32,169 bases of DNA from an uncultured Candidatus Saccharibacteria bacterium. GTDB lineage: Bacteria; Patescibacteriota; Minisyncoccia; Phycocordibacterales; UBA9973. Both the position numbers and the translations under genes were made by a program. Below, one piece after another: positions 1 through 32,169 of this stretch (the first letter of the stretch is position 1; the number at the start of each line of letters is the position of its first letter). The notes under the pieces were generated by a model that saw only the letters and a program-made list of their open reading frames with translations, was not told the DNA's origin and searched no databases. Where the stretch lies: assembly GCA_964514225.1 (NCBI GenBank), contig CAZEPT010000002.1:1-32169 (forward strand), read 5' to 3'.

Positions 1-227
1 TTTTTGAGTCCGAACTGTATGGGAGTAAATATGAAGTTAAAGAAAAGATTGAGCGCAAATGGCAAAGCGACCATCCAAGAAATTTTTCCTGTAAATGCTT
101 TGTAAAATACTGCGCCAAAAGAGATAGCAATGAGTACGTAGAGTACGGTCCATACTGGCCCGAACAACCATGAAGGTGGAGCCCATGATGGTTTAATAAG
201 AGATGAGTACCAGTTATATGTAGACAT
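1..227 (-). CDS. tspO: TspO/MBR family tryptophan-rich sensory protein (N-terminal ~75 aa; the rest runs off the window)
   Basis: Not in the ORF track. The reverse complement of 1-227 reads MSTYNWYSSLIKPSWAPPSWLFGPVWTVLYVLIAISFGAVFYKAFTGKISWMVALPFALNLFFNFIFTPIQFGLK, with the ATG at 225-227. W..L.KPSW.PP.W.FGPVWT.LY is the TspO signature. Confidence 0.8.
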   Translation of the reverse strand, partial: MSTYNWYSSLIKPSWAPPSWLFGPVWTVLYVLIAISFGAVFYKAFTGKISWMVALPFALNLFFNFIFTPIQFGLK

Positions 228-233
228 ACCTCT

Positions 234-241
234 ATTCTACA
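234..241 (-). promoter_or_regulatory. -10-like box TGTAGAAT, 6 nt upstream of the tspO ATG
   Basis: The minus strand reads TGTAGAAT-agaggt-ATG. The agagg could instead be a very close SD. Confidence 0.35.
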
Positions 242-321
242 CCATCGTTAGTGAAAAAACATGCATTTCATGTGTTTTTAAAATACACACTATGATGGAA
301 TATACAAAACTATAACCTTGA

Positions 322-330
322 TGTTATACT
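322..330 (+). promoter_or_regulatory. Extended -10 promoter TGtTATACT, 6 nt upstream of the crtE ATG (leaderless-type)
   Basis: tgttatact at 322-330, spacer gggcta, ATG at 337. No SD. Confidence 0.45.
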
Positions 331-336
331 GGGCTA

Positions 337-1359
337 ATGAATTTTGGAGAATTTCGCACATGGTTTGACGAACAGTTTTCGTTTTTATTGGAAAAAAAAA
401 TTAGAGATTTTATAGCCCACGGTAAAAATTCAGATATTACACCTATTGTTTCCTATATAACCTCCATTGCCAAAAATGGAAAACGATTTCGTCCTTTTTT
501 AGTTTATAGTGCGAGTAATCTCAACAAGAAAAACGCTAACGACCATTTTCTCTTATTTGCCAGTGTTGAGCTCCTTCATATTTTTGCTCTTATTCACGAT
601 GACATTATGGATGAAGCAGATATGAGGCACGGGGTTATTTGTGCACATAAAAAATTTACTGCTAAGTACGGAAAAACAACCAGTCAATCAATTGGAATCC
701 TTTTGGGCGATCTAGTATTCGCATGGGCATACGAATGCCTTTTTGAATACACTTCATTATTCCCTAATACTCATCATCGTATTACTCAAGAATTTACTCA
801 ACTCGTGAGTGAAGTTACTTATGGTCAAATACTCGACGTATTATCACCTTCACAAAAACCACTTGAAGAAAAAGCTATTCTTGAAAAAATGATTCTTAAA
901 ACTGCCCGATATTCTTTTGTCCGACCTCTTCTGTTGGGCTTTGTTCTTTCTGGTGATCAAACCACAGACCACGAGTTTGCGGAAAAATTCGGCCTAGCTC
1001 TTGGAATTGGATTTCAACTTCAAGATGATCTTCTTGACACCTTACCTACTGAAAAAACAGGAAAGTCTCAATTTTCTGACATCCAAAACAAAAACCAAAC
1101 TCTTCTGTCTCACTACCTATTTCAATCAAAACCAGAATATAGTAATAAACTCATGCTTTTTTGGGGAAAAACATTAGTTGATGAAAACGACAGACAATCA
1201 CTTACTCACATACTTGTAAACAGCGGGGCAATAGACTACATTAAAAAACTCACTACAGAGTATTTTAACAAAGCTCAAACCACAGTTACTGAGAGAGATG
1301 ACTCTGATCAACCTCGATGGAAATCTATCATCGAACTTATTGAAAACCGAAAAAAATAA
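337..1359 (+). CDS. crtE: trans-polyprenyl diphosphate synthase, probable geranylgeranyl diphosphate synthase
   Basis: 340-aa ORF. Has the first Asp-rich motif LIHDDIMDEADMRHG and the second FQLQDDLLD. It is the first gene of a tight synthase/desaturase run. Chain length is inferred, not shown. Confidence 0.85.
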   Translation: MNFGEFRTWFDEQFSFLLEKKIRDFIAHGKNSDITPIVSYITSIAKNGKRFRPFLVYSASNLNKKNANDHFLLFASVELLHIFALIHDDIMDEADMRHGVICAHKKFTAKYGKTTSQSIGILLGDLVFAWAYECLFEYTSLFPNTHHRITQEFTQLVSEVTYGQILDVLSPSQKPLEEKAILEKMILKTARYSFVRPLLLGFVLSGDQTTDHEFAEKFGLALGIGFQLQDDLLDTLPTEKTGKSQFSDIQNKNQTLLSHYLFQSKPEYSNKLMLFWGKTLVDENDRQSLTHILVNSGAIDYIKKLTTEYFNKAQTTVTERDDSDQPRWKSIIELIENRKK

Positions 1360-1360
1360 T

Positions 1361-2203
1361 ATGCTCACATTAGCTGAAATAGACCCGCGAATAATCATTA
1401 AAAAATACGGAACTGGGTACTACCGGGCGTCATTTCTCTTTCCAAAAGAAATAAGAGAAGCCACATGGAAATACTATCAGTTTGTTCGAATTGCGGATGA
1501 ACTTGTTGATGCAGACCAAGTTTATGATAAAAAAAATGAGCTCGACAAACTAAGAAACGAATGGAAAAAAACCCAATCTTCTGCAAGTACTTTTAATTTT
1601 CTTAATCAATACAAAGCTGTTGTAGACAAGTACAACATCCCCACAAGTTACACCGAGGTTTTTTTTAATTCAATGGAACAAGATTTATATGTCAGCACAT
1701 ACGAAACATACGCTGATTTAGAGAACTATATGCATGGATCTGCTGTTGTTGTTGGATATACGATGAGTCATCTTATTGGTTTCAAAGAGGGGGCTCTCGT
1801 TCACGCAAAAGCACTCGGAGAAGCATTCCAAATGACAAATTTTCTTCGTGACATACGAGAGGATTATGAAGACCGAGGCCGGATATATATTCCAAAAGAA
1901 GATATGGTGCGTTTTGGTGTGACTCCTGATCATATTGCAAACCACATCCAAGATGACGCATGGCGTGCCTTGATGAAGTTTGAGATAACCAGAACAAGAA
2001 AACTTTATGAGATCGGACTAGCTGGAATACCCATGCTGGATAAACACGGTAGACGAGCAGTGTATGCTGCAATGCTCATCTATAAAGAGATACTCAATAC
2101 AATCGAACTGCGTGATTACGATATTTTTTCTAAACGCATTACAGTTAGTCCAATCCGCAAAACGATGATACTATTGAAAGTACTATGGAGAATAAAACTG
2201 TAA
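1361..2203 (+). CDS. crtB: phytoene synthase (squalene/phytoene synthase family; a C30 CrtM-type is not excluded)
   Basis: ORF 1298-2203 trimmed to ATG 1361, one nt after the crtE stop (1357-1359). Motifs YYQFVRIADELVD and GEAFQMTNFLRDIREDYEDRGRIYIPKED. Confidence 0.85.
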   Translation: MLTLAEIDPRIIIKKYGTGYYRASFLFPKEIREATWKYYQFVRIADELVDADQVYDKKNELDKLRNEWKKTQSSASTFNFLNQYKAVVDKYNIPTSYTEVFFNSMEQDLYVSTYETYADLENYMHGSAVVVGYTMSHLIGFKEGALVHAKALGEAFQMTNFLRDIREDYEDRGRIYIPKEDMVRFGVTPDHIANHIQDDAWRALMKFEITRTRKLYEIGLAGIPMLDKHGRRAVYAAMLIYKEILNTIELRDYDIFSKRITVSPIRKTMILLKVLWRIKL

Positions 2204-3690
2204 CTATTATTGGTGCTGGGATTGGTGGCATGGCTCTTGCGTGCATGGTTGGGATAGCTGGATACAAAGTAACTGTTGTTGAAAAAAACGAAATGACTGG
2301 TGGTCGTGCGCGCATATTTTCAGACACGGGATTCACCTTCGATATGGGACCGAGCTGGTACATGATGCCTGATGTATTTGAACATTTTTTTGAAATCTTG
2401 GGTGAAGATATCACGCACTACTACACACTTGAAAGACTTTCACCTTCATACCAAATCACACTCAAAAGCGACGGTAAAAACTATACCTTTTATTCTGACA
2501 TGCAAAAAAATAAAGAATTATTCGAATCTATCGAGCCCGGTGCTGGTGCAGTACTTGAGGAATTCCTTATGCAAGGGAAAGAACAATATGAACTCTCAAA
2601 AGCAGAATTCATGTACAAAAACTATAATTCTATTCGAGACTTCATGACACTTCGTGTCATGCGCCAAGGGGCAAAGCTTCCACTGTTCAAAAAACAAAAA
2701 CAGATAATTGAGAAAAAATTTAAGAGTGAAATCCTTCGTAAAGCACTCCAATATCAGACTGTACTTTTAGGAACTGCTCCTGGAGATACCCCAGGTATTT
2801 ATACTCTTATGAATTATGTAGATTTAGTGCTTGGTGAATGGTACCCTAGCGGAGGTATTAGGTCTATTCCAGAAGCGCTAGAAACTATTGCAAAAAAATA
2901 CGGTGTGCAGATACTCTTGAACTCACCGGTCAAAAAAATCCTTATTACAGAAAATCACGCGACAGGAGTTCTTCTGCAAAACAACACGACTCTTCTCTCT
3001 GACCTTGTTGTTTCAAATGCAGATGTTGAACATACAGACAGAACATTACTCCCAAAAGAGTACCAAACAAAATCTAATGCATATTGGGAATCACGAGTAC
3101 TAGCTCCAAGTGCCTTCATTTTATACCTCGGAATACAAGGTAAAATTCCACAAATGCAACACCACAACCTTCTTTTTACAAAAAACTGGGAACATGGATT
3201 TTCTCAAATTTTTAAATCACCTGAATGGCCGGACGATCCATCTATGTACATTTGTATGCCCTCAAAAACTGACGAGAGTATTGCTCCAAGTGACCATGAA
3301 AATCTTTTTGTTCTTGTACCTATTGCATCAGGACTGACGTACGACGATGCATTTGTAGAAACGTATGGTGATAAAGTACTCAAAGAAATTGCACAGTACT
3401 ACAACATTCCAGACCTTCTGGAACGAGTTGTTGTTCGACACAGCTACAGTGTGAAAAACTTTATTAATGACTACAACGCTTTTAAAGGAACTGCACTTGG
3501 ACTAGCACACACACTTGGACAGACAGCAATTTTTCGACCAAACAATATTCACAAGAAAATAGATAATCTTTTTTATGTCGGAGCGGGAACGAATCCTGGT
3601 ATAGGTATGCCGATATGTCTTATTTCTGCTGAACTCGCATATAAACGTATCGAAAAAATTAAACACCCCTTCCCTCTCAAAAAAATCTAA
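2185..3690 (+). CDS. crtI: phytoene desaturase, CrtI family FAD-dependent oxidoreductase
   Basis: 501 aa. N-terminal Rossmann motif VTIIGAGIGGMALA and C-terminal FYVGAGTNPGIGMPICL typical of CrtI/CrtN/CrtD. Overlaps the crtB stop by 19 nt. Confidence 0.85.
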   Translation: MENKTVTIIGAGIGGMALACMVGIAGYKVTVVEKNEMTGGRARIFSDTGFTFDMGPSWYMMPDVFEHFFEILGEDITHYYTLERLSPSYQITLKSDGKNYTFYSDMQKNKELFESIEPGAGAVLEEFLMQGKEQYELSKAEFMYKNYNSIRDFMTLRVMRQGAKLPLFKKQKQIIEKKFKSEILRKALQYQTVLLGTAPGDTPGIYTLMNYVDLVLGEWYPSGGIRSIPEALETIAKKYGVQILLNSPVKKILITENHATGVLLQNNTTLLSDLVVSNADVEHTDRTLLPKEYQTKSNAYWESRVLAPSAFILYLGIQGKIPQMQHHNLLFTKNWEHGFSQIFKSPEWPDDPSMYICMPSKTDESIAPSDHENLFVLVPIASGLTYDDAFVETYGDKVLKEIAQYYNIPDLLERVVVRHSYSVKNFINDYNAFKGTALGLAHTLGQTAIFRPNNIHKKIDNLFYVGAGTNPGIGMPICLISAELAYKRIEKIKHPFPLKKI

Positions 3691-4571
3691 ATTACATTTT
3701 TTATAAAAAGTTCAATCGACACAAGTGCTCCGACGCTTGTATTAATAAGTGGGAAATATGTGTATATCTTAAAGAGCGCTGCATCTGAACGTGCTTGACT
3801 TGAACGCCACATAAAATAAGAAAATGTGATCAGACCTGCAATACTCGCGAATGGAATACTCTCAAACACTAAGTACGCAGCTAAAACATACAAAAACCAA
3901 CAAAAATAAATAGTTCGCTTTGCGCCAATAATAATGGCGATTGTTTTAAGTTTTGCCGCAATATCTGCTTGAATATCAGGAACAGCGCTGTATGCGTGCA
4001 TCGCGACTGCCCAAGAAACACCCGCGATCACTCCAATCACAGGGAAGCCAATTCCACCAGCAAGATAGTACCCAAACACACCTGTTGCAACATAGTGCCC
4101 CGCAGAAAAAAGTGAGTCGATAACCGGACGAGCTTTCGCACGTATTGGTGGTGCCGAGTAAAAGAATGCAAAAAAAAGGAAAATTATAAACGAAAGCATT
4201 GTTTCTCGGGCTGAGGGAACAAAAAACAAAAATGGTATATTAGTTAGCCCAATCCACACCCAGAGCATCCGGTTTTTCTCCGGGGTTACTAATTCTTCGT
4301 ACGTTCCCTTTTTTGGATTCAGTTTATCTGTTTCGTAATCAAACATATCGTTAACACCATAAATCAAAATATTTGCGGGAATGAGGAAATAAAATGCAAA
4401 TATCCAATAGTGCCATTGTGTAAAAAATGATAACCCTTGCATTGCACCAACTGCTCCAACGAGACCAAATGTTGCGGCTTCATACAACCAAAATCGAGGA
4501 CGTGAAATACGTAAAACTTCATATATGTTCATACGCTGTAGTATATCATCAAATATCAATTTACTTTTCAT
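3687..4571 (-). CDS. UbiA-family integral-membrane prenyltransferase (candidate lycopene-elongase-type enzyme)
   Basis: 294 aa and polytopic. Asp-rich motif NDMFDYETDKLNPKK after TM2. Convergent with crtI, with stop codons overlapping in CTAA at 3687-3690. Confidence 0.7.
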   Translation of the reverse strand: MKSKLIFDDILQRMNIYEVLRISRPRFWLYEAATFGLVGAVGAMQGLSFFTQWHYWIFAFYFLIPANILIYGVNDMFDYETDKLNPKKGTYEELVTPEKNRMLWVWIGLTNIPFLFFVPSARETMLSFIIFLFFAFFYSAPPIRAKARPVIDSLFSAGHYVATGVFGYYLAGGIGFPVIGVIAGVSWAVAMHAYSAVPDIQADIAAKLKTIAIIIGAKRTIYFCWFLYVLAAYLVFESIPFASIAGLITFSYFMWRSSQARSDAALFKIYTYFPLINTSVGALVSIELFIKNVI

Positions 4572-4667
4572 AAATTCACACTAAAAATTTCGGTACTCTT
4601 CACGCGCAAAGAGAGATCCTACACTCCTTAAGGTATCGTTAGATATTTTTGTTTTTAAGGAAAGGAC

Positions 4668-4676
4668 TGCTATAGT
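4668..4676 (+). promoter_or_regulatory. Extended -10 promoter TGcTATAGT, 6 nt upstream of the ATG
   Basis: tgctatagt at 4668-4676, spacer aaatac, ATG at 4683. Confidence 0.45.
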
Positions 4677-4682
4677 AAATAC

Positions 4683-5246
4683 ATGGAATCAATCGAAATA
4701 TTTTTTGGAAATTATAAAATACCCCTTACAGTGCTTCATGTTCTTTCAGTAGTATGTGGCATGGGTGCAGCACTCGTATCAGATTTTTTATTTAATTTCT
4801 ATACTAAAGATAAAGAACTTTCAAAAACTGAAATCTCCACATTATCAACTTTATCAAAAGTAGTACTCATTACTCTTCCTTTAATTATGCTTACTGGAGC
4901 TGGAATTTTTTTAAGTAATACAGATAAATACCTACACTCAGCTAAGTTTCTAGTTAAAATGACACTTATGGCTATCCTCCTTATAAATGGATTTATCTTA
5001 GATAAGTACATTTGGTCCCATTTACTCAATAAAAAATTTTTTACATCTCCAAACGAAAAAAAGTTTAGGATGCTCTCGTTTATATGTGGATCAACCTCAA
5101 TTATTACTTGGCTCTTTATTTGTACCCTAGGGGTGCTCGACAGTGTAACACTTTCTTATTGGCAACTTTTTGGAATTTATTCAGTGCTTCTTTTGGGATC
5201 GTTTCCAATCGCTCTCGCACTTGAATTTAAAGAATTTGGAAAATAA
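4683..5246 (+). CDS. hypothetical integral membrane protein (about 5 TM), no recognisable motif
   Basis: 187-aa ORF with five hydrophobic segments. Divergent from the UbiA gene and has its own -10 box. Confidence 0.6.
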   Translation: MESIEIFFGNYKIPLTVLHVLSVVCGMGAALVSDFLFNFYTKDKELSKTEISTLSTLSKVVLITLPLIMLTGAGIFLSNTDKYLHSAKFLVKMTLMAILLINGFILDKYIWSHLLNKKFFTSPNEKKFRMLSFICGSTSIITWLFICTLGVLDSVTLSYWQLFGIYSVLLLGSFPIALALEFKEFGK

Positions 5247-5257
5247 CACACTCCGTA

Positions 5258-6487
5258 TTATTTTTTGATAAAATTCTTATCTCGCTTGAGCTTGTGAAAG
5301 GTTATTGCAAAACGGTGCGACTCACTATTGGCGAGTAAAATTTCTTTCTTATACTCTTTAGTAAGTATCTTGTCTCCTAAAATATCTTTTGGCTTGTGTT
5401 GTTCATCTTTCAAAACTGAAACGACAGGAATCTTCAGCTGGTAGAACTTGAGAACCTGTTCAGTAACGTTAATTTGAGCGATACCTCCATCGACAACAAC
5501 TAACTCTGGTAAACCCCATTCTATGTGCCTAAAACGCCGCATGAGGACCTCATGAAGGGCTCCAGTGTCATTTGCACCAGTCTGAGACCTGATGATGAAT
5601 TTCTTATATTCGGTCTTATCAACTTCCCTGTTTTGAATGACGGTCATAACCCCAACCATCTCTTTTCCGCCCAAATGAGCAATATCATAGGATTCTATCC
5701 GAAAACTCTTATCGTCAATTCTTGATCCAAAAAAGTCAGATTTAATCACAGCAATATCATTGATATGTTCAAGTGCGAAAATCTGTTTTTTAATAAGATT
5801 GGCTTCTTCAAACTTCAATGCCTTGGCTTTAGCTTGCATGTCTTTCTTTAAATCACTGATGATTTTCTTTTTCTTACCTTGGAAAAAGAGCACGATATGC
5901 TTGATGTTTTCTTTGTACTTGTTGAGCGCTTCAGTGTTGGTCGTATCGGGTGTCAGTCCAAGTTGTTTATAAAATTCGTATGTGTCTTTCTGAATAGCTT
6001 TTCGATCGATATACGGAAAAATACGCCTGATGATCCGGAGTCCTTCTAAGATAGCACTCCCACTCGTAAATGGACCGAAGGCATACTTTGGTTTGAGTGT
6101 CGAAAGTTCTTTTTCAATTTTCAGATTCCGTCCACGAATGAGCTCAATGCGTGGGATGGGGTCATTTGTGATAATGACGTAATTAAAACTCTTATCGTCT
6201 TTTTCTTTTGTGTTGTACTTCGGCTTATACCGCTTGATAAGCTCAGCTTCTAAAAGAAGGGCCTCAAGTGCAGTGTCAGTCACTTCAAAATCAATACTCG
6301 TTGCAAGCGCAACCATATCAGCCACAGAGACACTCCGAGTTTCAATCAGATCTTTGACAAAGTAGCTCCGGGTACGATCACGGAGCGATGTCGCTTTCCC
6401 AATATACAAAATATCCCCTCCTTTCTTAAACAGATACACCCCTGGCTTATCAGGAAGTGCTCTTTCTTTCAGGTGTTGACTATTCAT
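5258..6487 (-). CDS. uvrC: excinuclease ABC subunit C, short form lacking the C-terminal HhH2 domain
   Basis: GIY-YIG motif (GVYLFKKGGDILYIGKATSLRDRTRSYF), UVR coiled coil (KALKFEEANLIKKQIFALEHI) and C-terminal endonuclease core (YDIAHLGG ... VVVDGG ... HRFAITFH). Start moved to ATG 6487 because the upstream ATG 6496 lies inside the -10 box. Confidence 0.9.
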   Translation of the reverse strand: MNSQHLKERALPDKPGVYLFKKGGDILYIGKATSLRDRTRSYFVKDLIETRSVSVADMVALATSIDFEVTDTALEALLLEAELIKRYKPKYNTKEKDDKSFNYVIITNDPIPRIELIRGRNLKIEKELSTLKPKYAFGPFTSGSAILEGLRIIRRIFPYIDRKAIQKDTYEFYKQLGLTPDTTNTEALNKYKENIKHIVLFFQGKKKKIISDLKKDMQAKAKALKFEEANLIKKQIFALEHINDIAVIKSDFFGSRIDDKSFRIESYDIAHLGGKEMVGVMTVIQNREVDKTEYKKFIIRSQTGANDTGALHEVLMRRFRHIEWGLPELVVVDGGIAQINVTEQVLKFYQLKIPVVSVLKDEQHKPKDILGDKILTKEYKKEILLANSESHRFAITFHKLKRDKNFIKK

Positions 6488-6494
6488 TGGATGC

Positions 6495-6503
6495 ATTATA
6501 TCA
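6495..6503 (-). promoter_or_regulatory. Extended -10 promoter TGaTATAAT for uvrC
   Basis: The minus strand reads TGATATAAT-gcatcca-ATG(6487). Confidence 0.5.
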
Positions 6504-6528
6504 TGAGTTCAAACAAAACTTAACAATT

Positions 6529-7026
6529 ATGAATATAATTTCTATTATTCAAGAAATCACCGTACAAGCGCTCATTGCCGTATTGATTTGTATCCCGCTT
6601 TTTATAGCATCAGCTATAACGGTCATCTACATAGACTCACTTGCTAATTGTTGGAGATATCTAAAACGAGACCAAAACAAGAACAAGGATGTGGAGATAC
6701 CACCTGAACCAAATATAGTATACGACCCTTTCCGCGGAGAAATGACACCAGTACTTTCCCTGAAACAGATACCAGCCATATTTTATGCTGGGACATTTAT
6801 TTTACAACTGTTTCCAATTGTGAATACGTTTATGCTGATTCACTCGGTTCTGCCTTTTTTTGAAATCCTCAAAAACATACGCAGGAATCCGCATTTAACA
6901 ATGCGTAGTGCTCAATATTATCTCAAAAAAAACCCTGAGGTACAGTCGAAGTTGTATCACAGTGTGATTTTACAATTTATCCTCAAGTATGGATTCGCAG
7001 CGCGATTTCGTCTTCTTTTTCTTTAA
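6529..7026 (+). CDS. hypothetical membrane protein
   Basis: ORF 6457-7026 trimmed to ATG 6529, since the upstream part overlaps the uvrC start and promoter. Has an N-terminal TM and a second hydrophobic block. Followed by a terminator. Confidence 0.6.
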   Translation: MNIISIIQEITVQALIAVLICIPLFIASAITVIYIDSLANCWRYLKRDQNKNKDVEIPPEPNIVYDPFRGEMTPVLSLKQIPAIFYAGTFILQLFPIVNTFMLIHSVLPFFEILKNIRRNPHLTMRSAQYYLKKNPEVQSKLYHSVILQFILKYGFAARFRLLFL

Positions 7027-7035
7027 AACCTTTTT

Positions 7036-7075
7036 ATGTCCTAGAACTGACTTATCAGAGCTAGGACATTTTTTA
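7036..7075 (+). terminator. Rho-independent terminator
   Basis: atgtcctag (7036-7044) pairs with ctaggacat (7061-7069). Inner ctga/tcag stem, then a T-run. Confidence 0.7.
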
Positions 7076-7129
7076 TTGACTTATTTTCTTATTTATTATA
7101 CTGTGTAGTTAAATCAAAAAAATTACATC

Positions 7130-7483
7130 ATGAGTACTATCTTAGTTTTATTTTTGGCCATTATTCCCCTTGCGGTGAATAATATTTATTTAAAAAAAGA
7201 AGTTAGCTTCTACAGTCAGGATAAGTTCGAAAGAGCATTCTGGCTCTACACCCCTTTTTTTGCAATACTTGCTACTATAGCTTGTATCTGTATTAAAATT
7301 GATAATCTTAATAAAATTATCAAAGAAATCAAAAAAGGTGCCCACACACAAAGCGATGTCATGCTTTATCGTATCTTCAAGAAAAATGATTATTCACCAA
7401 AAAAAATACGTAACAGTATTTTCCTCCGCTTTCTCTACCGCCTTTTAGGTGGAAACTATCACAATCTCCCTTTTTCACACTAA
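7130..7483 (+). CDS. hypothetical small membrane protein (2 TM), weak paralog of 6529-7026
   Basis: 117-aa ORF. Its C-terminal basic segment aligns with that of the preceding gene. Has its own terminator. Confidence 0.55.
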   Translation: MSTILVLFLAIIPLAVNNIYLKKEVSFYSQDKFERAFWLYTPFFAILATIACICIKIDNLNKIIKEIKKGAHTQSDVMLYRIFKKNDYSPKKIRNSIFLRFLYRLLGGNYHNLPFSH

Positions 7484-7500
7484 GGGAAAATCATATATCA

Positions 7501-7531
7501 AAAAATCCCAGTTAACCCCTGGGATTTTTTA
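7501..7531 (+). terminator. Rho-independent terminator
   Basis: aaaaatcccag (7501-7511) pairs with ctgggattttt (7519-7529), followed by a T-run. Confidence 0.7.
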
Positions 7532-7584
7532 TTTATCTATTACAGAGGCACTAAAAGCGACAGCTTTATTTATTTTAAAAATAA

Positions 7585-7592
7585 TGTATAAT
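7585..7592 (+). promoter_or_regulatory. -10 box TGTATAAT for prs
   Basis: tgtataat lies 24 nt upstream of ATG 7617 and downstream of the 7501 terminator. Confidence 0.45.
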
Positions 7593-7616
7593 AAGGCCAA
7601 ACAAAACTTAAAAACA

Positions 7617-8627
7617 ATGAAGAAAATTGCCCTTATTTCAGGTAGCACACACCTTGCGCTCGCTCAAAAAATTAGCTTTGACCTAAATGTAAGACTTACA
7701 GAAGTTTCAATTGAAAAATTCTCCTGTGATGAAATAAACGTTGAAATCAAAGAAACTGTACGCGGTGCCGAAGTTTTTATTATTCAAAGCTCCCTCACAG
7801 GACATGGTAATGATAATTTTGTAGAAGCAATGCTTATAATAGATGCCGCTAAACGAGCTGGTGCGTCTAAGGTTTATTTAGTACAGACCATATTTCCTTA
7901 CCAAAGACAGGACCGCAGAGAGACAAACCGTAGAAATAGACCTAAACGTAAAGCTATTTCTGGTAGAGTTATGGCTGATTGTTTCGCTAGAGCCGTCTTC
8001 GTGGATGGAATAATCAGTATTAAACTCCACAGTGATCAAATCGAGGGGTTCTTTGATAACCGAACTCTTATTGAGAACATTGACCCGACAAGTCTGTTTA
8101 TAGAATATCTAAAATCAGAGAATATTATTCGAAGTGAATACGGTGATTCGAAACCTCCAACTGTAGTTGCTCCAGATATTGGTTCAGCAAAGACAGCGGA
8201 TAGTTTCTCAGAAGCACTTGGTCTTAATGATTACGTCATTGTGAACAAAAGAAGAACTAAAAGTAATGAATCTGAGGTTCTTCATGTTATTGGCGATTAT
8301 AGCGGTAGAATTTGTATTATTTATGACGATATGATTGATACCGGTGGAACAGTCGTGAACAGCCAAAAAAAGCTACAAGAATTAAAAGAGGCAGGAGCAA
8401 CTGATGTTTACCTCATGGCACCCCATGGAATATTTTCTAAAAACGCTATCGAAAGGTTATCAAATTCTGATTTTAAAAAAATTGTCATTACAGATTCGAT
8501 ACCTAACCCTCAAGTAGAAAATAATGAAAAATTCGTAATTTTATCATTAGCCCCACTGCTGAAAAGTGTTATCAAAAATATTCATGACGCAGAGTCCCTG
8601 CAACCAGTAGTAGCAAATAAATCGTAA
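7617..8627 (+). CDS. prs: ribose-phosphate pyrophosphokinase (PRPP synthase)
   Basis: ORF 7449-8627 trimmed to MKKIALISGS (ATG 7617), because the extension crosses a terminator. Motifs FSCDEINVEI, YQRQDRR, HSDQIEGFF and the PRPP loop IIYDDMIDTGGT. Confidence 0.9.
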   Translation: MKKIALISGSTHLALAQKISFDLNVRLTEVSIEKFSCDEINVEIKETVRGAEVFIIQSSLTGHGNDNFVEAMLIIDAAKRAGASKVYLVQTIFPYQRQDRRETNRRNRPKRKAISGRVMADCFARAVFVDGIISIKLHSDQIEGFFDNRTLIENIDPTSLFIEYLKSENIIRSEYGDSKPPTVVAPDIGSAKTADSFSEALGLNDYVIVNKRRTKSNESEVLHVIGDYSGRICIIYDDMIDTGGTVVNSQKKLQELKEAGATDVYLMAPHGIFSKNAIERLSNSDFKKIVITDSIPNPQVENNEKFVILSLAPLLKSVIKNIHDAESLQPVVANKS

Positions 8628-8650
8628 TTATATAAAAACATAATTACCAC

Positions 8651-8688
8651 AAAAGCCTTATAGATTATTCTGTAAGGTTTTTATTTTT
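8651..8688. terminator. Possible bidirectional terminator between convergent prs and uvrA
   Basis: aaaagcctta (8651-8660) pairs with taaggttttt (8673-8682), including one G-U. T-runs on both strands. AU-rich, weak stem. Confidence 0.4.
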
Positions 8689-11299
8689 TCCGCAGAACTT
8701 TTTTGAGATACTGTCCTGTATAGGAATTTTTATTATTCGCTACTTCTTCAGGTGTTCCTTTAGCAACCAGTTGTCCGCCACCGACTCCACCTTCTGGACC
8801 AATATCCAAGAGATAATCGGCACATTTGATGATATCCATGCTGTGTTCGATCAGCACGACTGAATTACCCTTATTAACGAGCATGTTGAGGACATCTAAG
8901 AGCTTTGCAACGTCGTCATAGTGCAGTCCGACAGTTGGCTCATCGAGTAAGTAAATAGTTTTTTCTACATGAGGCCGGTACAGCTCTGAAGATATTTTTA
9001 CGCGCTGCGCTTCTCCACCGGAGAGCGTCGTAGCAGATTGACCAAGCTTGAGGTAGCCGAGACCTACATCGCTTAGGGTCTTGATACGGTCATGGATTGC
9101 TGGAATATCTTCAAAAAATGTCAGTGCTTCTTCGACGGTCATCTGGAGCACATCGTAGATATTCTTCTTTTTGTATTTGACGGTAAGTGTTTCTTTATCA
9201 AAACGCTTTCCACCACACACATCGCACGTCACATAAACAGTCGGTAAAAAGTGCATCTCAACGGCAATCTCACCATTTCCTTCACAAGCTTCACATCGTC
9301 CACCTTTGACGTTGAATGAGAATCTATTTGATTTCCAACCACGGAGACGTGCTTCTTCAGTCGAGGCAAACATATCGCGTATATGAGTAAATGAGCCCGT
9401 ATATGTCGCGACGTTTGATCGAGGAGTACGTCCGATCGGAGACTGATCAATCAAGATCGCTCGTGTCAGGTATTCAGTTCCAGTAAATGAGGCACAGTTA
9501 AATACTTTTGCTGTTCGGTACTTTCTTTCAAGTCGTGCTTGAAGGTTCTTATGGACGATCTCATACATAAATGATGACTTCCCTGACCCTGACACGCCTG
9601 TGATACATACCAATTTTCCAAGAGGAATTTCAGCCTGCATATTTTTTATATTAAACACATTTCCATTAACGATCTTAAGAGATCCTTTATCGTTAGTTCG
9701 TCTCTTTTCAGGAACTGGAATAGAAATTTCATTTCGCAAATAGCCGAGCGTTCGAGAACCACTCGTATTTTTCTTAGCTGAGAGGAGTTCAGAAAGCCAG
9801 CCTTCTGCTACAACATTCCCACCATGGATACCAGCTTTAGGTCCGATATCAACAATATAGTCTGATGAGTAGATCGTATCTTCATCGTGCTCAACAACCA
9901 AGATAGTGTTGCCGAGGTCACGTAAGTCAGTCAGTGTATTGATAAGCCGTTCGTTATCCCTCTGATGGAGTCCAATTGTTGGTTCGTCTAAGACATAGAG
10001 TGCGCCAACAAGTCGTGAGCCGAGTTGTGAGGCAAGTCTGATACGCTGAGCTTCTCCGCCTGAGAGCGTATTAGCTCGTCTATCGAGTGAGAGGTATTCT
10101 AGTCCCACGTTTAGCATGAATTGTATTCGGTCAGTGATTTCTCGAAGGACCGGAAGAGAAATCTCTTTTTCTTTCGGACCCATTTTCAAACTGGTAATAA
10201 AGTCTTTAGATTCTTTAATCGTCATACTCGTAAAGTCCACAATATTTTTTCCGGTCTTGAGATCACCTCCGAGCATCACATGGAGCGCTTCTCTCCTGAG
10301 TCGTTTACCTCCACACGCCTCGCATTCGTCGAGGGCAGCAAAGTATTTCGTTCCGAGACCGTTACATTCTGGACACGCTCCGTAGGGCGAATTAAATGAG
10401 AAGAGTCTGGGTTCAACTTCAGGGAAAGAAAATCCATCATTTTTACAGGCAAATTTAGCTGAGAGAACGAATTCTTCCCCTGTTTCAAAATGGATTGTAA
10501 CAAGTCCGTCAGACTCAACAAGCGCTCGTTCAACAGCTTCGGCGAGCCGCATCCGACTCGCGTCTTTGTCATCTTTAAATTCATGAAGTGCCAGTGTATC
10601 AACAACGACATCGATTTCATGTTTTTTATTTTTTGACAGGTCGATTCGGTCACGAAGGCTTTTGACAGCACCATCGATGCGCACCTCAGTGAATCCTTTA
10701 TTCAATAGGTCATAGAGCATCTGATAGTGTTCCCCTTTTCGTCCACGAAGAATCGGCGAAAGCACAGACACTTTTGTCTCATTCCATTTAACCCCCATAA
10801 GTTCTTTTTTGGTTCCGCTATTTTTTTTGAGATACGCTTGAACTTTTTCCAAGACGAATGAAATAATCTCTTCGTTAGAAAGTTTTTTAATTTCTTCACC
10901 ACATTCTGGGCAGTGTGGATGTCCAACACGAGCATAGAGCACACGCAGGTAGTCATAAATCTCAGTAATCGTCGCAACGGTCGAACGAGGGTTGTTAGAA
11001 CGGGACTTTTGATCGATTGAGATAGCAGGTGAAAGACCGGTAATCTCATCGACATCAGGCTTCGGCATCTGATTGAGGAATTGGCGAGCATAGGCTGAAA
11101 GAGACTCCACATAGCGGCGTTGTCCTTCAGCAAAAATAGTATCAAAAGCAAGCGACGACTTCCCTGAGCCTGACATACCAGTAATAACCGTCATAGTATT
11201 ACGCGGTATTTCAACACTGATATTTTTTAGATTGTGTGTACGTGCTCCTTTGACAACAATTGCATCAATGGGCCTTACTGGTTTCTTGTGATCTGCCAT
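8681..11299 (-). CDS. uvrA: excinuclease ABC subunit A
   Basis: Two ABC ATPase modules ([18 protein letters not shown], two LSGGE signatures) and Zn modules ([36 protein letters not shown]). The ORF track starts at 11311, but that ATG lies inside the -10 box, so I prefer ATG 11299 (MADHKK). Confidence 0.93.
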
Positions 11300-11309
11300 A
11301 TATGGGTGC

Positions 11310-11318
11310 ATTATAGCA
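11310..11318 (-). promoter_or_regulatory. Extended -10 promoter TGcTATAAT for uvrA
   Basis: The minus strand reads TGCTATAAT-gcacccatat-ATG(11299). It directly abuts the upstream terminator. Confidence 0.5.
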
Positions 11319-11383: not shown

Positions 11384-12259
11384 CTACTGTACTTTTTCTT
11401 CTACGGGTTCTTCCACTGGGCCATAAAAAGCTGGACGATGACTAATCGTAACCTGTTGTCTTCCGTAGGCATATGGAACAACTTGGTATTCGCCGAAATA
11501 GAATATTACTTCAGTCGGTGTAAAAGTATACACTTTAAAATTATCAGTCTCCGGCTCTGTTCCATCGTAAATCATTTGAGCGAGGTTTGCGTCTTCATCA
11601 TTTTTAAATACAAGCTTGTCGAAAGATTCCTTGTATGTAACTTTAGGCAGGAGTTTTTCAAGAAGTTTTTTTCGACTTTCAGCAGAAATGAATCCAATCT
11701 GATCTACTTGTCCTTTGAATATATCTCGCAAATACACCATCTTCTTATTTTTGACATCATAATTGAGTGAAAAGACATTTTCATAACCATGCGCTCCACC
11801 TTGATACCCACTGTATGTAAATAAAACACTTACAAAATCTTCATTCGCTTGAATAACGGTATAGTCAGCGAACAGTGGATACTTGTCTTCCGTGGTAATT
11901 GGAGTACTTGGACCTCCCGTCTCAATACGAGCTTTGAAATTTTCTTCTGATAGAGCAGTATGATCTTTTATAATCCGCTCATACGTGTTTCGAATGCGAT
12001 CATTTTCTAAAGTTGGAATATTTCTGAATTGTGGGTACTTTACATTAAGAGTGGTATATGTATCTTCTTTTTGTATATGTTTAGTCTCGATAAGACTCTC
12101 ATCAACAAGACCACCTTCAGATTGCGGGACTTCTACTTGAATATGTTCTTGAGCTTTTTCTTCTCTTTTTATTGGTTTGTAAATCTTAAAAAAATAATAA
12201 GCCAAGGCCGCACAAACAACGATAACAAGAAAAATAGCGTAGATATTCTTTGCTTTCAT
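11384..12259 (-). CDS. membrane-anchored DUF4163/DUF3298 (RsiV/PdaC-like) domain protein
   Basis: 291 aa with an N-terminal TM. LNVKYPQF and YSGYQGGAHGYENVFSLNYD resemble the DUF4163/DUF3298 motifs (GGAHG). Confidence 0.7.
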   Translation of the reverse strand: MKAKNIYAIFLVIVVCAALAYYFFKIYKPIKREEKAQEHIQVEVPQSEGGLVDESLIETKHIQKEDTYTTLNVKYPQFRNIPTLENDRIRNTYERIIKDHTALSEENFKARIETGGPSTPITTEDKYPLFADYTVIQANEDFVSVLFTYSGYQGGAHGYENVFSLNYDVKNKKMVYLRDIFKGQVDQIGFISAESRKKLLEKLLPKVTYKESFDKLVFKNDEDANLAQMIYDGTEPETDNFKVYTFTPTEVIFYFGEYQVVPYAYGRQQVTISHRPAFYGPVEEPVEEKVQ

Positions 12260-12303: not shown

Positions 12304-14340
12304 CTATTCACCTTTCTTTACATGTGCACCAAGTTTCCCTTTCAAAATAATAATCTCATCTCGTAAAATCGCTGCGGTTTCAAAGTCGAGTTCTTTGACT
12401 GCATCATTCATTTCTTTTTCCTTTAATTTAATGAGCTTTTTGGGGTCTTTCTTAAACACAGCACTATCAATCGCAATGTTCATGTAGACTGCTTTTTGGT
12501 GATCGCTCTCAAGTTCTTCAGTAATATCTTTAATTTTTTTTATAATCGTCTGGGGAGTAATACCGTGCGCTTTGTTATATGCGAGCTGTTTTTCTCGACG
12601 TCGGTTGGTCTCGCCGATAGCTCGTTCCATTGAACCCGTTTCGCGGTCAGCATATAAAATAACGCGCCCTTTCACATTTCGAGCAGCCCGACCGATTGTT
12701 TGAATGAGCGATGTTTCTGATCTCAAAAATCCTTCCTTGTCAGCATCGAGAATTCCAATGAGCTCAACTTCAGGCAGGTCGAGTCCTTCACGAAGGAGAT
12801 TCACTCCGACCAAGCAGTCAAATTCCCCTTTACGAAAATTTGTCAAAATTTTTATTCGATCAATTGTTTTGATATCACTATGGAGATACTCGGCTTTGAT
12901 TTTCTTACCACTCTCTTCTTTTTGCTCTTTAAGATATGAAGAAAGATCTTCAGCCATTTTTTTAGTCAACGTTGTCGCAAGGACTCGTCCTCCCCCAGAA
13001 ATCGTCTTAATCGCCTCAGCAATAAAATCCTGGATCTGTCCTGGGTACTTCCCTTGCTCCATGACCGGCTTGATGTCTATTTGCGGATCAATCAATCCAG
13101 TCGGACGAATGATTTGTTCAACAATCTTATCGGATTGTGTTCGCTCAAACTCACCTGGAGTCGCTGAAACATAGACGACTTGTCCTATCCGCTCTTCAAA
13201 TTCATTATATTTAAGTGGTCGGTTATCTTTAGCACTCGGCAATCTGAATCCGAATTCAACTAAGGTATTTTTTCTGGAAGCATCACCAGCATGCATGCCG
13301 TGGAGTTGAGGCAACGTCACGTGAGATTCATCGATGATCGTCAAAAAATCCGGACTGCCGTCTTTGTTGTGAGGAAAATACGAAATAAGTGTATCAGGCG
13401 GTTCGCCTTCTTTTTTACCAGAGAGGTGCCGGGAATAGTTTTCGATACCGGAACAGTAGCCGACTTCTTTAATCATTGCCGTATCGTATGTCGTCCGGCG
13501 TTTGATGCGGTCAGCTTCTAAGAGCTTACCTTCTTTCTCAAATTTTTTGAGTTGAGTGGCAAGCTCAGCACGGATGGATTTAACGGCGCGGTCTCGGTCA
13601 CTTTTAGCTGTCATGAAGTGCTTAGCTGGAAACACGAAAAAATCTTTCAGTTCAGAAATGATTTGAGATGTGACGGTATTGTATTTAATAATTTTACTCA
13701 CCGTGCTTCCTGAAAATTCAATCTGATAGCCATCTGTTTCAGAGACTGGCATAATATCAAGCCTGGTACCGAGGGAGCGGAATGTCGCAGGAGTGAGGTC
13801 TGCATTAGTCCGTTCATACTGCATCTCAATCAATTGCTTCATGAGGTCAGTCTTGAGAACTTTCTGCCCGATACTAATCCTAAAATTTTTATTTTCATAT
13901 TCTACAGGAGATCCCAAACCATAAATACATGAGACAGACGCGACAATGATCACATCAGGCCGGGTCAAGAGTGCTTGGGTTGTTGCATGGCGAAGCCGGT
14001 CTATCTCTTCATTAATAGTGGCGTCTTTTTCGATAAAGGTATCAGTTACCGGCATGTACGCTTCAGGCTGGTAGTAGTCATAGTATGAGACAAAATAGTG
14101 GACTGCTGCATCAGGGAAAAACTCTCGGAATTCCTGAGCGAGCTGAGCAGCGAGGGTTTTATTATGAGCGATGATGAGTGTCGCCTTCCCCCACTCTTGA
14201 ATGACGTTTGCCATCGTAAAGGTCTTTCCTGTACCGGTCGCACCCAAAAGAGTCTGTTTGACCAAACCTTTATCTAAGCCCTTTAAAAGCCCAACAATAG
14301 CCTCAGGTTGGTCACCAGAGGGAGCCCAGTCGCTTTTCAT
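12304..14340 (-). CDS. uvrB: excinuclease ABC subunit B
   Basis: ORF 12304-14427 trimmed to MKSDWAPSGDQPEAI (ATG 14340), because the extension covers a terminator hairpin. Walker A GATGTGKT, helicase motifs DESH and GRAARN, C-terminal UVR motif DFETAAILRDEI. Confidence 0.93.
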   Translation of the reverse strand: MKSDWAPSGDQPEAIVGLLKGLDKGLVKQTLLGATGTGKTFTMANVIQEWGKATLIIAHNKTLAAQLAQEFREFFPDAAVHYFVSYYDYYQPEAYMPVTDTFIEKDATINEEIDRLRHATTQALLTRPDVIIVASVSCIYGLGSPVEYENKNFRISIGQKVLKTDLMKQLIEMQYERTNADLTPATFRSLGTRLDIMPVSETDGYQIEFSGSTVSKIIKYNTVTSQIISELKDFFVFPAKHFMTAKSDRDRAVKSIRAELATQLKKFEKEGKLLEADRIKRRTTYDTAMIKEVGYCSGIENYSRHLSGKKEGEPPDTLISYFPHNKDGSPDFLTIIDESHVTLPQLHGMHAGDASRKNTLVEFGFRLPSAKDNRPLKYNEFEERIGQVVYVSATPGEFERTQSDKIVEQIIRPTGLIDPQIDIKPVMEQGKYPGQIQDFIAEAIKTISGGGRVLATTLTKKMAEDLSSYLKEQKEESGKKIKAEYLHSDIKTIDRIKILTNFRKGEFDCLVGVNLLREGLDLPEVELIGILDADKEGFLRSETSLIQTIGRAARNVKGRVILYADRETGSMERAIGETNRRREKQLAYNKAHGITPQTIIKKIKDITEELESDHQKAVYMNIAIDSAVFKKDPKKLIKLKEKEMNDAVKELDFETAAILRDEIIILKGKLGAHVKKGE

Positions 14341-14391
14341 ATTGAATGGAGTAGTCTTTTTCACATATATAGTGTACGTGAAAATGGGAAA

Positions 14392-14419
14392 TAAAAAAAG
14401 CAGTCCGTTCGGACTGCTT
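14392..14419 (-). terminator. Rho-independent terminator of the two-gene cassette
   Basis: aagcagtcc (14398-14406) pairs with ggactgctt (14411-14419), loop gttc. T-run on the minus strand. Confidence 0.75.
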
Positions 14420-14438
14420 AAAAGCAACTTGTGTATTA

Positions 14439-22849: not shown

Positions 22850-22925
22850 GCCGCTTTAGCTCAGTTGGTAGAGCAACGCTTTTGTAAAGCGAAGGTCCTC
22901 AGTTCAAGTCTGAGAAGCGGCTCCA
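22850..22925 (+). tRNA. tRNA-Thr (anticodon UGU), CCA encoded
   Basis: Hand-folded cloverleaf: acceptor gccgctt/aagcggc, D arm gctc-agttggta-gagc, anticodon stem cgct/agcg with loop tTTGTaa (anticodon TGT), T arm ctcag-ttcaagt-ctgag, then tCCA. Confidence 0.85.
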
Positions 22926-32000: not shown

Positions 32001-32169
32001 GTTTATGAAGATCGATATTTTTGAAGAGTGTATAGATTGCTTCAGCACCGATAGATGCTTCGAAACAGGTCCCATACTTAAGACTATAGTGATGATACTG
32101 AATTTCATTCAAAACCTTACCTTCATACATTTCAGCAATTTCTTTTTTTGCAGTCAAAAAGAGGTCTTT
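29083..32169 (-). CDS. rpoC: DNA-directed RNA polymerase beta' subunit (C-terminal ~1028 aa; the N-terminus is outside the window)
   Basis: Catalytic NADFDGDQMAV, the bridge-helix/trigger-loop region and C-terminal GLIPAGTG. The track's M at 32157 is a TTG. The frame stays open to 32169 (KDLFLTAKKE...). Confidence 0.93.
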   Translation of the reverse strand, partial: KDLFLTAKKEIAEMYEGKVLNEIQYHHYSLKYGTCFEASIGAEAIYTLFKNIDLHKLRDITQVLVDKAGNSEREKLEKRLALIRSMIHADMRPEWMFLTVLPVIPPALRPMVALDGGRHATSDINDLYRRVINRNNRLKKLKEIGAPDVILRNEKRILQEAVDALLDNSIASQNDTQAMSQSQKRALKSLADNLKSKQGLFRQNLLGKRVDYSARSVIVVGPNLHLDQCGLPKHMALELFKPFVVSKLIEREFTYNIRGANKLVEDGIPEVWAILEECIEGKYVLLNRAPTLHRLGIQAFHPILIEGNAIQLHPLVCAAFNADFDGDQMAVYLPLSVQAQAEARDLMASNKNLLKPQSGEPIVNPSNDIILGCYWMTKDVEGEKGEGSIFSSPNEAIAAYEHGILGFRAKIKVLPTDSPKYAQFEGGLFETTVGKLLFNSILPRDFAYTGKEITKKVMSSLVDEVITDVGIDATPKILDKIKDFGFKYSTVSGTTFGYDNVKVPEGKKAIVAESRKKEAVIIEQYNDGLLSKDEKYQKVIEIWELAKKEVEKLIPATLNTAGSVYDMVISGARGSVGQISQMAGMKGLIINTQGRTIDFPVIPSYKEGLSPIEYFIITHGSRKGLADTALNTAKAGYLTRRLVDVAQDVVVTDHDCKTKEGRYAQKDNVMGIEIPLSKNLRGRIVLEDVKDSAGTVIYKKGTLLNREDAAHVEKLGIEKVLVRSPLACKTLHGVCQMCYGLDLGRNRLVDIGEAVGIVAAQAIGEPGTQLTLRTFHAGGVVAVDITAGLPRVEEIFERRLPKNPAVICHGAGKVIEIIKHEKEKTIVILEDSKGGLKSNTTEYKVAFRRNPLVKVGEDVISGQKLTDGSADISEIFKFGGKQVAEEYIIDEINKVYELQGASISRKHIEIIIRQMFSRVKIKASGDTHFSGGETVELIELNEENTRAEEEGGLPAKADTIILGISDVSLTTTSWLSAASFQNTNRVLINNAVRGGVDRLRGLKENVIIGGLIPAGTGFRKAADSEKGA

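Follow-up and report, generated by a model that had tools for sequence, protein, structure and literature searches.

What a compact set of carotenoid genes makes, and to what end, in a bacterium with little biosynthesis of its own is the question raised by positions 1-5246 of the DNA studied here. The whole stretch analysed, called the window below, comprises the first 32,169 nucleotides of contig CAZEPT010000002.1 (assembly GCA_964514225.1), recorded as an uncultured Candidatus Saccharibacteria bacterium. Bacteria of the candidate phyla radiation (CPR) count as biosynthetically minimal, and many are unable to make their own lipids. An earlier reading of this DNA, referred to as the original prediction, had described a carotenoid island set in a housekeeping context. 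Our analysis suggests that the block is probably a self-contained bacterioruberin-type C50 carotenoid pathway in a Paceibacteria genome, with bisanhydrobacterioruberin as end product and a photoprotective role.

Genes of the window were called from a list of its open reading frames (ORFs) and their translations, and families were assigned by Pfam and NCBIfam scans. All six island ORFs of the original prediction are present at the positions it gave, and the scans of their proteins show that the gene identities were correct. On the plus strand, a short-chain trans-polyprenyl diphosphate synthase (337-1359; PF00348, E=3e-46, 158 bits), CrtE/IdsA-like and a probable geranylgeranyl diphosphate (GGPP) synthase, is followed by the phytoene synthase CrtB of the SQS_PSY family (1361-2203, 280 aa; PF00494, E=3e-63, 214 bits) and by a CrtI-family desaturase, probably of the CrtI/CrtD ("CrtID") type known from haloarchaea (2185-3690; TIGR02734, 488 bits with a cutoff of 238). 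The real start of crtB is ATG 1361, matching the calls in relatives, which leaves a gap of 1 nt after crtE, and crtI overlaps crtB by 19 nt. A LyeJ-type UbiA prenyltransferase, the predicted lycopene elongase/1,2-hydratase, lies on the minus strand (3687-4571; PF01040, E=2e-18; NF009516). It is convergent with crtI, the two 3′ ends overlapping by 4 nt, and its true start is likely Met14 at 4532, which gives 281 aa as in relatives. The Pfam and NCBIfam E-values of the island genes lie far beyond chance. With three families adjacent and co-directional, and with both aspartate-rich motifs of the synthase in place, crtE-crtB-crtI forms a canonical lycopene module. No cyclase, ketolase, hydroxylase, rhodopsin or cleavage dioxygenase was detected by Pfam or NCBIfam among the other window ORFs of at least 100 aa, in agreement with the original prediction.

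The arrangement is not peculiar to this contig. A CrtI alignment was used to scan one genome per GTDB species and gave 80 loci, among which L003-L066 are CPR metagenome-assembled genomes (MAGs) with CrtI proteins 49-83% identical to that of the window. In gene maps of 67 CPR loci, the window included, crtB-crtI occurs in 64, UbiA is convergent with crtI in 61 (five of the other six stop at or just past crtI), and crtE lies directly upstream of crtB in 48. Some 60 species-level genomes of CPR bacteria have kept a crtE-crtB-crtI module opposite a convergent UbiA, which makes the module common in the lineage. The original prediction had thought a pigment pathway unusual for a reduced CPR host, and had listed the finding of this exact cluster as common in a pigmented phylum among the outcomes that would speak against it; with about 60 species representatives, and with bacterioruberin genes of Patescibacteria already published (PMC9948471), the outcome so listed is found in part.

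The module is also under purifying selection. Ratios of nonsynonymous to synonymous substitution rates (dN/dS) against the sister contig L001 are 0.12 for crtE, 0.13 for crtB, 0.04 for crtI and 0.07 for UbiA, and stay within 0.04-0.13 for all island genes, which therefore appear functional. CrtE and CrtB are 71-74% identical between the window and L001, compared with 97-98% for UvrA and UvrB. As dS is similar (1.0-1.8), the divergence comes from weaker constraint on the enzymes of the first steps and not from allele replacement. Recent horizontal transfer of the island was considered and ruled out, because its GC content is no different from that of the rest of the window, it is syntenic in relatives, its dS against L001 is close to the value for uvrA alongside it, and pairwise identities of UbiA follow those of UvrA (r=0.83). 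These data argue for a functional and vertically inherited module. The fragmented crt genes of L084 (JGI 3300056850, corresponding to window 1-9515) were rejected as pseudogenes; the 27 one-base indels at 99.4% identity are long-read errors.

The host is a CPR bacterium of the Paceibacteria. The assignment is based on the record titles of relatives and on synteny. Close homologues of CrtI and UbiA number in the hundreds, and those that are named all belong to Candidatus Parcubacteria, Pacebacteria, Paceibacterota or Taylorbacteria. In many of the CPR loci, uvrA and uvrB, 69-82% and 68-70% identical to those of the window, are syntenic with the cluster. The original prediction had suspected a CPR-like host, and the nearest CrtI and UbiA relatives together with syntenic uvrA, uvrB and uvrC, all in Paceibacterota/Parcubacteria MAGs, bear this out. 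Many records with this CPR cluster (L005-L007, L010, L012-L017 and others) are titled "uncultured Candidatus Saccharibacteria". Titles in L022, L067, L073 and L081 include one "Nanoarchaeia archaeon" and some "Gammaproteobacteria/Pseudomonadales", and L067 has flanking gene families common to Paceibacteria loci. Such labels look generic, or the contigs look mis-binned.

How far do the individual enzymes point to one product? The CrtE-like protein has its best NCBIfam matches in the GGPP_syn and IdsA models, all below cutoff. Read from the sequence, its first aspartate-rich motif (FARM) is DDIMD, an un-inserted DDxxD in which positions -5 and -4 hold Phe and Ala; its second (SARM) is DDLLD. Such a FARM has the archaeal type-I GGPP synthase pattern under the Ohnuma chain-length rules. 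Two Asp-rich motifs, DELVD and DIRED, occur in CrtB, which shares 34% identity (E=3e-43) with CrtB of a Halococcus bacterioruberin locus and finds its best solved-structure match in 5iys, a phytoene synthase. The scores of both proteins stay short of any CrtE or CrtB equivalog cutoff, so that their respective specificities, C20 and C40, are predictions.

The top model of the desaturase is NF058655 (CrtID) with 595 bits, short of the equivalog cutoff of 640 but with a lead of 340 bits over the next equivalog, CrtD, with 255. NF058655 is titled "bifunctional phytoene desaturase/3,4-desaturase" and evidently reflects the 2024 demonstration that C0507 of Haloarcula japonica has both CrtI and CrtD activity (PMC11946383). 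The window protein carries the GxGxxG FAD motif and is 42% identical to the CrtID of Halococcus, for which NF058655 gives 772 bits. Its PDB matches are 4dgk (phytoene dehydrogenase) and 4rep (gamma-carotene desaturase), with E of about 1e-68. Only one desaturase occurs per cluster in all CPR loci mapped. Rather than being a generic CrtI, the protein therefore probably belongs with the haloarchaeal bifunctional CrtI/CrtD enzymes, a point that the original prediction had missed.

Alternatively, the synthase and desaturase could serve a squalene/hopanoid (HpnCDE) route, a C30 (CrtM/CrtN) pathway or the supply of a retinal precursor for rhodopsin. The top NCBIfam match of the synthase is indeed HpnD (167 bits, cutoff 279), CrtM structures match it at E=2.5e-25, and a lycopene cyclase accompanies CrtI in a few CPR loci of another type (L078, L080-82). 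The HpnD match was dropped as a sign of squalene synthesis, because bona fide haloarchaeal CrtB likewise gives HpnD first and below cutoff. All NCBIfam matches of the synthase are below cutoff, HpnC included (155 bits, cutoff 250). The squalene/Hpn alternative fails since there is one SQS_PSY gene, haloarchaeal CrtB shares the HpnD-first pattern, and the desaturase scores 40 bits on HpnE (cutoff 283) against 595 on CrtID. In addition, a GGPP-type synthase lies directly upstream, and the window is without cyclase, blh/brp or rhodopsin. This group of alternatives is largely refuted and extremely unlikely; judged by these scores and the gene count, the pair is not of the Hpn type, grouping with which the original prediction had named as an outcome that would overturn it.

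Clusters of another kind occur in the same scan. In the four cyclase-bearing loci just named, whose CrtI is 42-44% identical to that of the window, the cyclase belongs to PF18916; L081 is labelled Gammaproteobacteria, the other three CPR, and L080 also holds a LyeJ-type UbiA. These clusters hint at cyclic carotenoids, or possibly at a retinal precursor, elsewhere in the radiation.

The UbiA gene had been listed as an item apart from the carotenoid genes. We predict that it encodes the lycopene elongase of the same pathway. The protein scores 228 bits on NF009516 (cutoff 205), a model that holds LyeJ, and other UbiA subfamily models give 37 bits or less, except two related unnamed "prenyltransferase" models. 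NF009516 scores 431-437 bits on the haloarchaeal gene between crtID and cruF, in Halococcus (L077) and Salinibaculum (L079), and 215-245 bits on UbiA proteins of CPR loci with a linked cruF, level with the window protein. Both Asp-rich motifs (NDMFDYETD and DIQAD) are present, which together with the score places the protein in the LyeJ family, and KEGG-based naming by JGI gives lycopene elongase/hydratase for members of its 90% cluster. With a UbiA-type lycopene elongase and a CrtID-type desaturase side by side, a C50 bacterioruberin-type product is therefore likely. The end product, which the original prediction had left open, can thus be predicted.

If UbiA acted instead on a quinone, lipid or cell-envelope prenyl acceptor, the pigment would stop at C40, as plain lycopene or its 3,4-didehydro derivative. 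UbiA is a very broad superfamily, the model name is generic, many cluster members are called "4-hydroxybenzoate polyprenyltransferase" by JGI, and the gene, being on the opposite strand, is not co-transcribed with crtEBI. Against this, the non-LyeJ-like models stay far below NF009516, the tail-to-tail pairing of UbiA with crtI noted above is kept across CrtI identities of 49-90%, and the UbiA of sister clades is flanked by cruF, which encodes a carotenoid-specific enzyme. We regard a plain C40 product as very unlikely.

For the C50 bacterioruberin-type pathway, steps may be assigned from the homologous Haloarcula enzymes, whose functions are known from genetics. The CrtE/IdsA-like synthase would supply GGPP, two molecules of which CrtB would join to phytoene, and the CrtI activity of the desaturase would convert phytoene to lycopene. 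The LyeJ-type UbiA would then add a C5 unit from dimethylallyl diphosphate (DMAPP) at one end of lycopene and hydrate the 1,2 bond, after which the CrtD activity of the same desaturase would introduce the 3,4 double bond at the elongated end. Repetition of elongation, hydration and 3′,4′ desaturation at the other end would give bisanhydrobacterioruberin, a C50 diol; if an unlinked cruF were present, the product would be bacterioruberin. Embedded in the membrane, the pigment could shield the cell from sunlight and photo-oxidative damage; it may also stiffen the membrane.

Whether the pathway goes one step further depends on cruF (PF04240/TIGR03460), the gene for the bisanhydrobacterioruberin hydratase, a C50 carotenoid 2'',3''-hydratase. 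No cruF was found by tblastn and hmmscan in the 32-kb window or in L083, a Logan contig 99.9% identical to the window, and none lies within 10 kb in about 50 window-type loci. Among CPR loci from the CrtI scan, it follows UbiA in seven alone (L028, L032-35, L042 and L053). It adjoins UbiA in haloarchaea and in nearly all of 80 metagenome cruF loci with enough flank, where the cruF-UbiA neighbours, from a scan with CPR CruF sequences, span organisms with GC contents of 0.31 to 0.74. No metagenome cruF locus has a window-type UbiA, the top identity being 52%, and the same scan, made with a CPR-only CruF alignment, recovered none of the long window-type contigs. As cruF is missing nearby, bisanhydrobacterioruberin is predicted rather than bacterioruberin. 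Read most simply, this pattern means that the window-type clade lost cruF, relocation being less likely.

Nevertheless, a cruF elsewhere in the genome could hydrate both added C5 units and complete the pathway to bacterioruberin, a C50 tetrol. Of the genome, roughly 1 Mb in size, about 3% is visible; UbiA is missing within several kb of cruF in a few metagenome loci (L098, L121); and in the Lake Baikal study of Patescibacteria, which reported lyeJ, crtD and cruF, cruF lies far from lyeJ/crtD in one genome (PMC9948471). The linkage of cruF to LyeJ-type UbiA in almost every sufficiently flanked locus of CPR, haloarchaea and other taxa, and its absence within 10 kb of the window-type enzyme, speak against this reading. 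We judge a complete bacterioruberin pathway unlikely.

The phylogeny of UbiA fits a loss of cruF. Neighbor-joining (NJ) trees were bootstrapped and built without characterised CrtEb or Arthrobacter references, and in the first tree the tips L076 and L077 were ignored as antisense shadow ORFs in high-GC loci. The window-type UbiA proteins form a clade with 89% bootstrap, and their nearest neighbours in the tree are cruF-linked. They group with the cruF-linked CPR clade (93%) and with a convergent cruF-linked group, in a supergroup with 73% support, apart from haloarchaeal LyeJ.

The same tree leaves some room for another chemistry, in which UbiA elongates lycopene off the bacterioruberin route, either in a CrtEb-like manner to non-hydrated or terminally hydroxylated C45/C50 products, or at one end only. 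The window-type enzymes form their own clade, with 36-40% identity both to haloarchaeal LyeJ and to the CPR enzymes linked to cruF. Loss of cruF could accompany altered end-group chemistry, and in eight relatives crtI and UbiA are separated by small membrane ORFs. The model scores oppose such a change, since the top model of the window UbiA is the LyeJ-containing NF009516, at the level of the cruF-linked CPR proteins. Moreover, the window scans gave no C50 cyclase of the CrtYe/Yf type, nor is there a recurrent one next to the clusters of relatives. An off-route C45/C50 product is distinctly unlikely, and bisanhydrobacterioruberin is retained as the predicted end product.

The small ORFs concerned (118-152 aa; L012, L014-L017, L037, L046 and L064) lie on the UbiA strand and are without a Pfam match; they fall into three groups, two of which resemble each other weakly (hhalign 44%). 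An accessory part in carotenoid synthesis is conceivable, as is mere filler. They were ruled out as cryptic CruF by hhalign probabilities of at most 2%.

In the window, the place next to UbiA is taken by a membrane ORF of 187 aa with five transmembrane segments (5-TM ORF; 4683-5246, plus strand), for which no family lies above any cutoff and DUF2214 is a weak match below cutoff. In four other loci (L111, L107, L118 and L127), crtE, crtB and crtI converge with UbiA as in the window, and cruF fills the slot of the 5-TM ORF, on the same strand as crtE-crtB-crtI. The 5-TM ORF itself was ruled out as a cryptic CruF (hhalign probability 0.4%), and a single-sequence AlphaFold model of it was unusable (pLDDT 52). 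Homologues are confined to L001/L083-85 (87%) and to L043, at 31% identity and 6 kb away from the cluster. With a dN/dS of 0.06 against L001, it is a real gene, lineage-specific and outside the conserved module, which the original prediction had not recognised.

Upstream of crtE and divergent from it lies tspO (227..1, minus strand), a member of the TspO/MBR family of which the window edge leaves the N-terminal 75 of 134 codons. PF03073 gives 63.5 bits on this fragment and 97.6 bits on the complete 134-aa protein of L083. The 109-bp region between the two genes (228..336) is presumed from the layout to hold promoters. A scan for consensus promoters and terminators gave no more than chance, with fewer promoter sites than in shuffled sequence, and is uninformative. 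The link of tspO to crt genes that had been pointed out is real, tspO being adjacent here and within 10 kb of the cluster in 8/67 CPR loci; a regulatory role for it here may at most be conjectured. In this lineage only, an NmrA-like NAD(P)H-binding protein (PF13460) is encoded directly past tspO (L083 14751-15380, L001 6996-7625), and a peroxiredoxin (AhpC-TSA) gene lies a few kb beyond it in L001 and L084.

What the pigment may be for is suggested by the neighbours of the module. The surroundings are not the neutral housekeeping context first described, for uvrC (5258-6496), uvrA (8681-11311) and uvrB (12304-14427), all on the minus strand, flank the cluster here and in relatives, and photolyase and HhH-GPD glycosylase genes recur beside it. 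UvrA has UvrA_inter and ABC_tran domains, and UvrB has UvrB, UvrB_inter, Helicase_C and UVR domains. Near the crt module, uvrA was found in 15 of the 67 CPR loci, uvrC, beside the module, in 14, and uvrB in 10. In 13 relatives uvrA is directly upstream of crtE or crtB; as a rule uvrC follows downstream of UbiA, while uvrB stands a few genes upstream of uvrA. A DNA photolyase gene is no more than two genes away from the cluster in L015-17, L019, L058, L067, L068, L074 and L111, directly adjacent except in L058 and L111, and this linkage is more independent evidence than that of the uvr genes. An HhH-GPD glycosylase occurs in five loci and a peroxiredoxin (AhpC) in three. The repeated UV-repair, photolyase and stress neighbours point to protection against sunlight and oxidative stress. 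The record titles of the loci name mainly river, pond and lake water columns, and C50 carotenoids are described as stiffening membranes and protecting from UV (PMC11946383). Because of these neighbours, the water-column records and the properties of C50 carotenoids, a function in sunlight or photo-oxidative stress is favoured, with a possible membrane role.

The UvrC of the window is a short form of 412 aa with GIY-YIG, UVR and UvrC RNase H-like domains (TIGR00194, 255 bits). Here and in L001-L027, the protein has 409-417 aa and stops where the C-terminal (HhH)2 domain would begin, the TIGR00194 model having 574 positions. A short UvrC seems general in these CPR genomes.

Several points weigh against a photoprotective pathway ending in bisanhydrobacterioruberin. 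The uvr linkage is found mainly in one subclade, plus L051 of a different clade with uvrC nearby, so that few independent events are involved. The desaturase stays below the NF058655 equivalog cutoff of 640 bits. NF009516 is titled merely "prenyltransferase", and the window UbiA has half the score of true haloarchaeal LyeJ, to which it is 38% identical. Pairwise identities of CrtI and UvrA are weakly correlated (r=0.34, Mantel p=0.08). The search for cruF covers about 34 kb of the host's own genome and 10 kb on either side of the cluster in relatives, and the Baikal genome with a distant cruF, cited above, is pertinent here. The activities of all the CPR enzymes are predictions, and the source of isopentenyl diphosphate (IPP) and DMAPP is an assumed input of the pathway. 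Finally, the Baikal paper proposes cold adaptation of membranes in dark bathypelagic water, not photoprotection (PMC9948471); our reading differs from this proposal, the sole one for Patescibacteria in the literature searched.

A broader picture can be offered tentatively, as a possibility that we hold less probable than not. A large, mostly freshwater clade of Paceibacteria, of about 50 species-level genomes, may have retained the bacterioruberin pathway in a form without cruF, with bisanhydrobacterioruberin or another non-canonical C45/C50 pigment as end product. Together with uvrABC, tspO and the photolyase, glycosylase and peroxiredoxin genes of relatives, it might form one sunlight-defence locus. 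If so, these ultra-small, lipid-scavenging bacteria would be pigmented and self-sufficient for a membrane-spanning isoprenoid, and their cells would face sunlight exposed, possibly free-floating, rather than as shielded symbionts. A pathway for a 50-carbon membrane-spanning pigment conserved in about 60 species would mean that some CPR bacteria invest in their own envelope chemistry. From the repeated placement beside genes for UV repair and photolyase follows an ecological reading open to testing, defence against sunlight in surface waters. It may also be feasible to use the compact cluster of four genes and about 4.3 kb as a small C50 carotenoid cassette.

The remaining features of the window lie farther from the island. 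A PdaC/DUF3298 protein is encoded between uvrA and uvrB (11384-12259, minus strand) and is conserved in L001 and L083 (82% identical). A ribose-phosphate pyrophosphokinase ORF (7449-8627, plus strand) has 392 aa from a GTG, compared with 324 aa in L001, and overlaps a 117-aa ORF (7130-7483); its start is probably over-called, the first 60 residues being without a domain match. The sole RNA gene of the window by Rfam and tRNA scans is a tRNA-Thr(TGT) at 22850-22925 on the plus strand, far from the island. A 1024-aa ORF for rpoC (29083-32157, minus strand) runs off the right edge of the window.

Among the closest known systems is the haloarchaeal bacterioruberin cluster. In Haloarcula japonica, the functions of c0507 (crtI/D), c0506 (lyeJ) and c0505 (cruF) were established by knockouts, and crtB lies nearby (Yang 2015; Yatsunami 2024, PMC11946383); c0506 encodes LyeJ, a bifunctional lycopene elongase/1,2-hydratase (PMC11946383). 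The Halococcus locus L077 has crtID-lyeJ-cruF in the same order, with crtB adjacent on the opposite strand. As in the window, a single desaturase, in the window probably of the same CrtI/CrtD type, stands beside a LyeJ-type UbiA and CrtB, and the top NCBIfam models are the same, NF058655 and NF009516; the Halococcus proteins are 42% (desaturase), 38% (UbiA) and 34% (CrtB) identical to those of the window. The window differs in being without cruF, in a UbiA that is convergent rather than co-directional, in having its own GGPP synthase and in a desaturase below cutoff. Its host also differs, being a low-GC CPR bacterium of non-saline water with a genome of roughly 1 Mb.

That Patescibacteria can hold bacterioruberin genes is already known. 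In Lake Baikal, lyeJ, crtD and cruF were reported from this phylum, unclustered or on separate reads, with the conclusion that synthesis of C50 carotenoids can be encoded by CPR bacteria (Haro-Moreno et al. 2023, PMC9948471). The Baikal genes resemble those of the window in the phylum of the host and in the families lyeJ and crtD. In contrast, the window has a tight and widely conserved crtE-B-I/lyeJ module without cruF amid UV-repair genes. The compact, widespread Paceibacteria module, the consistent lack of cruF and the linkage to UV repair go beyond that study. Also similar are the seven cruF-linked CPR clusters and L111, L107, L118 and L127, which have the gene order and orientation of the window and a UbiA that groups with the window-type clade in the 73% supergroup, at 36-47% identity to that of the window. 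They differ in holding cruF where the window holds the unrelated 5-TM ORF, and in L111 the photolyase gene lies beside cruF, two genes from UbiA.

Two further systems share parts of the design. Actinobacterial C50 pathways (Corynebacterium crtE-B-I-Yef-Eb and the bacterioruberin cluster of Arthrobacter) have the same crtE-crtB-crtI core and a UbiA-type lycopene elongase, and the Arthrobacter pigment is tied to membrane adaptation (PMC3598387, PMC9122864); the window, in contrast, is without C50 cyclase genes. The Rhodobacter crt cluster with crtK/tspO resembles the island in having tspO directly beside carotenoid genes, but the window lacks photosynthesis and tetrapyrrole genes, and its tspO linkage recurs in just the eight CPR loci mentioned above.

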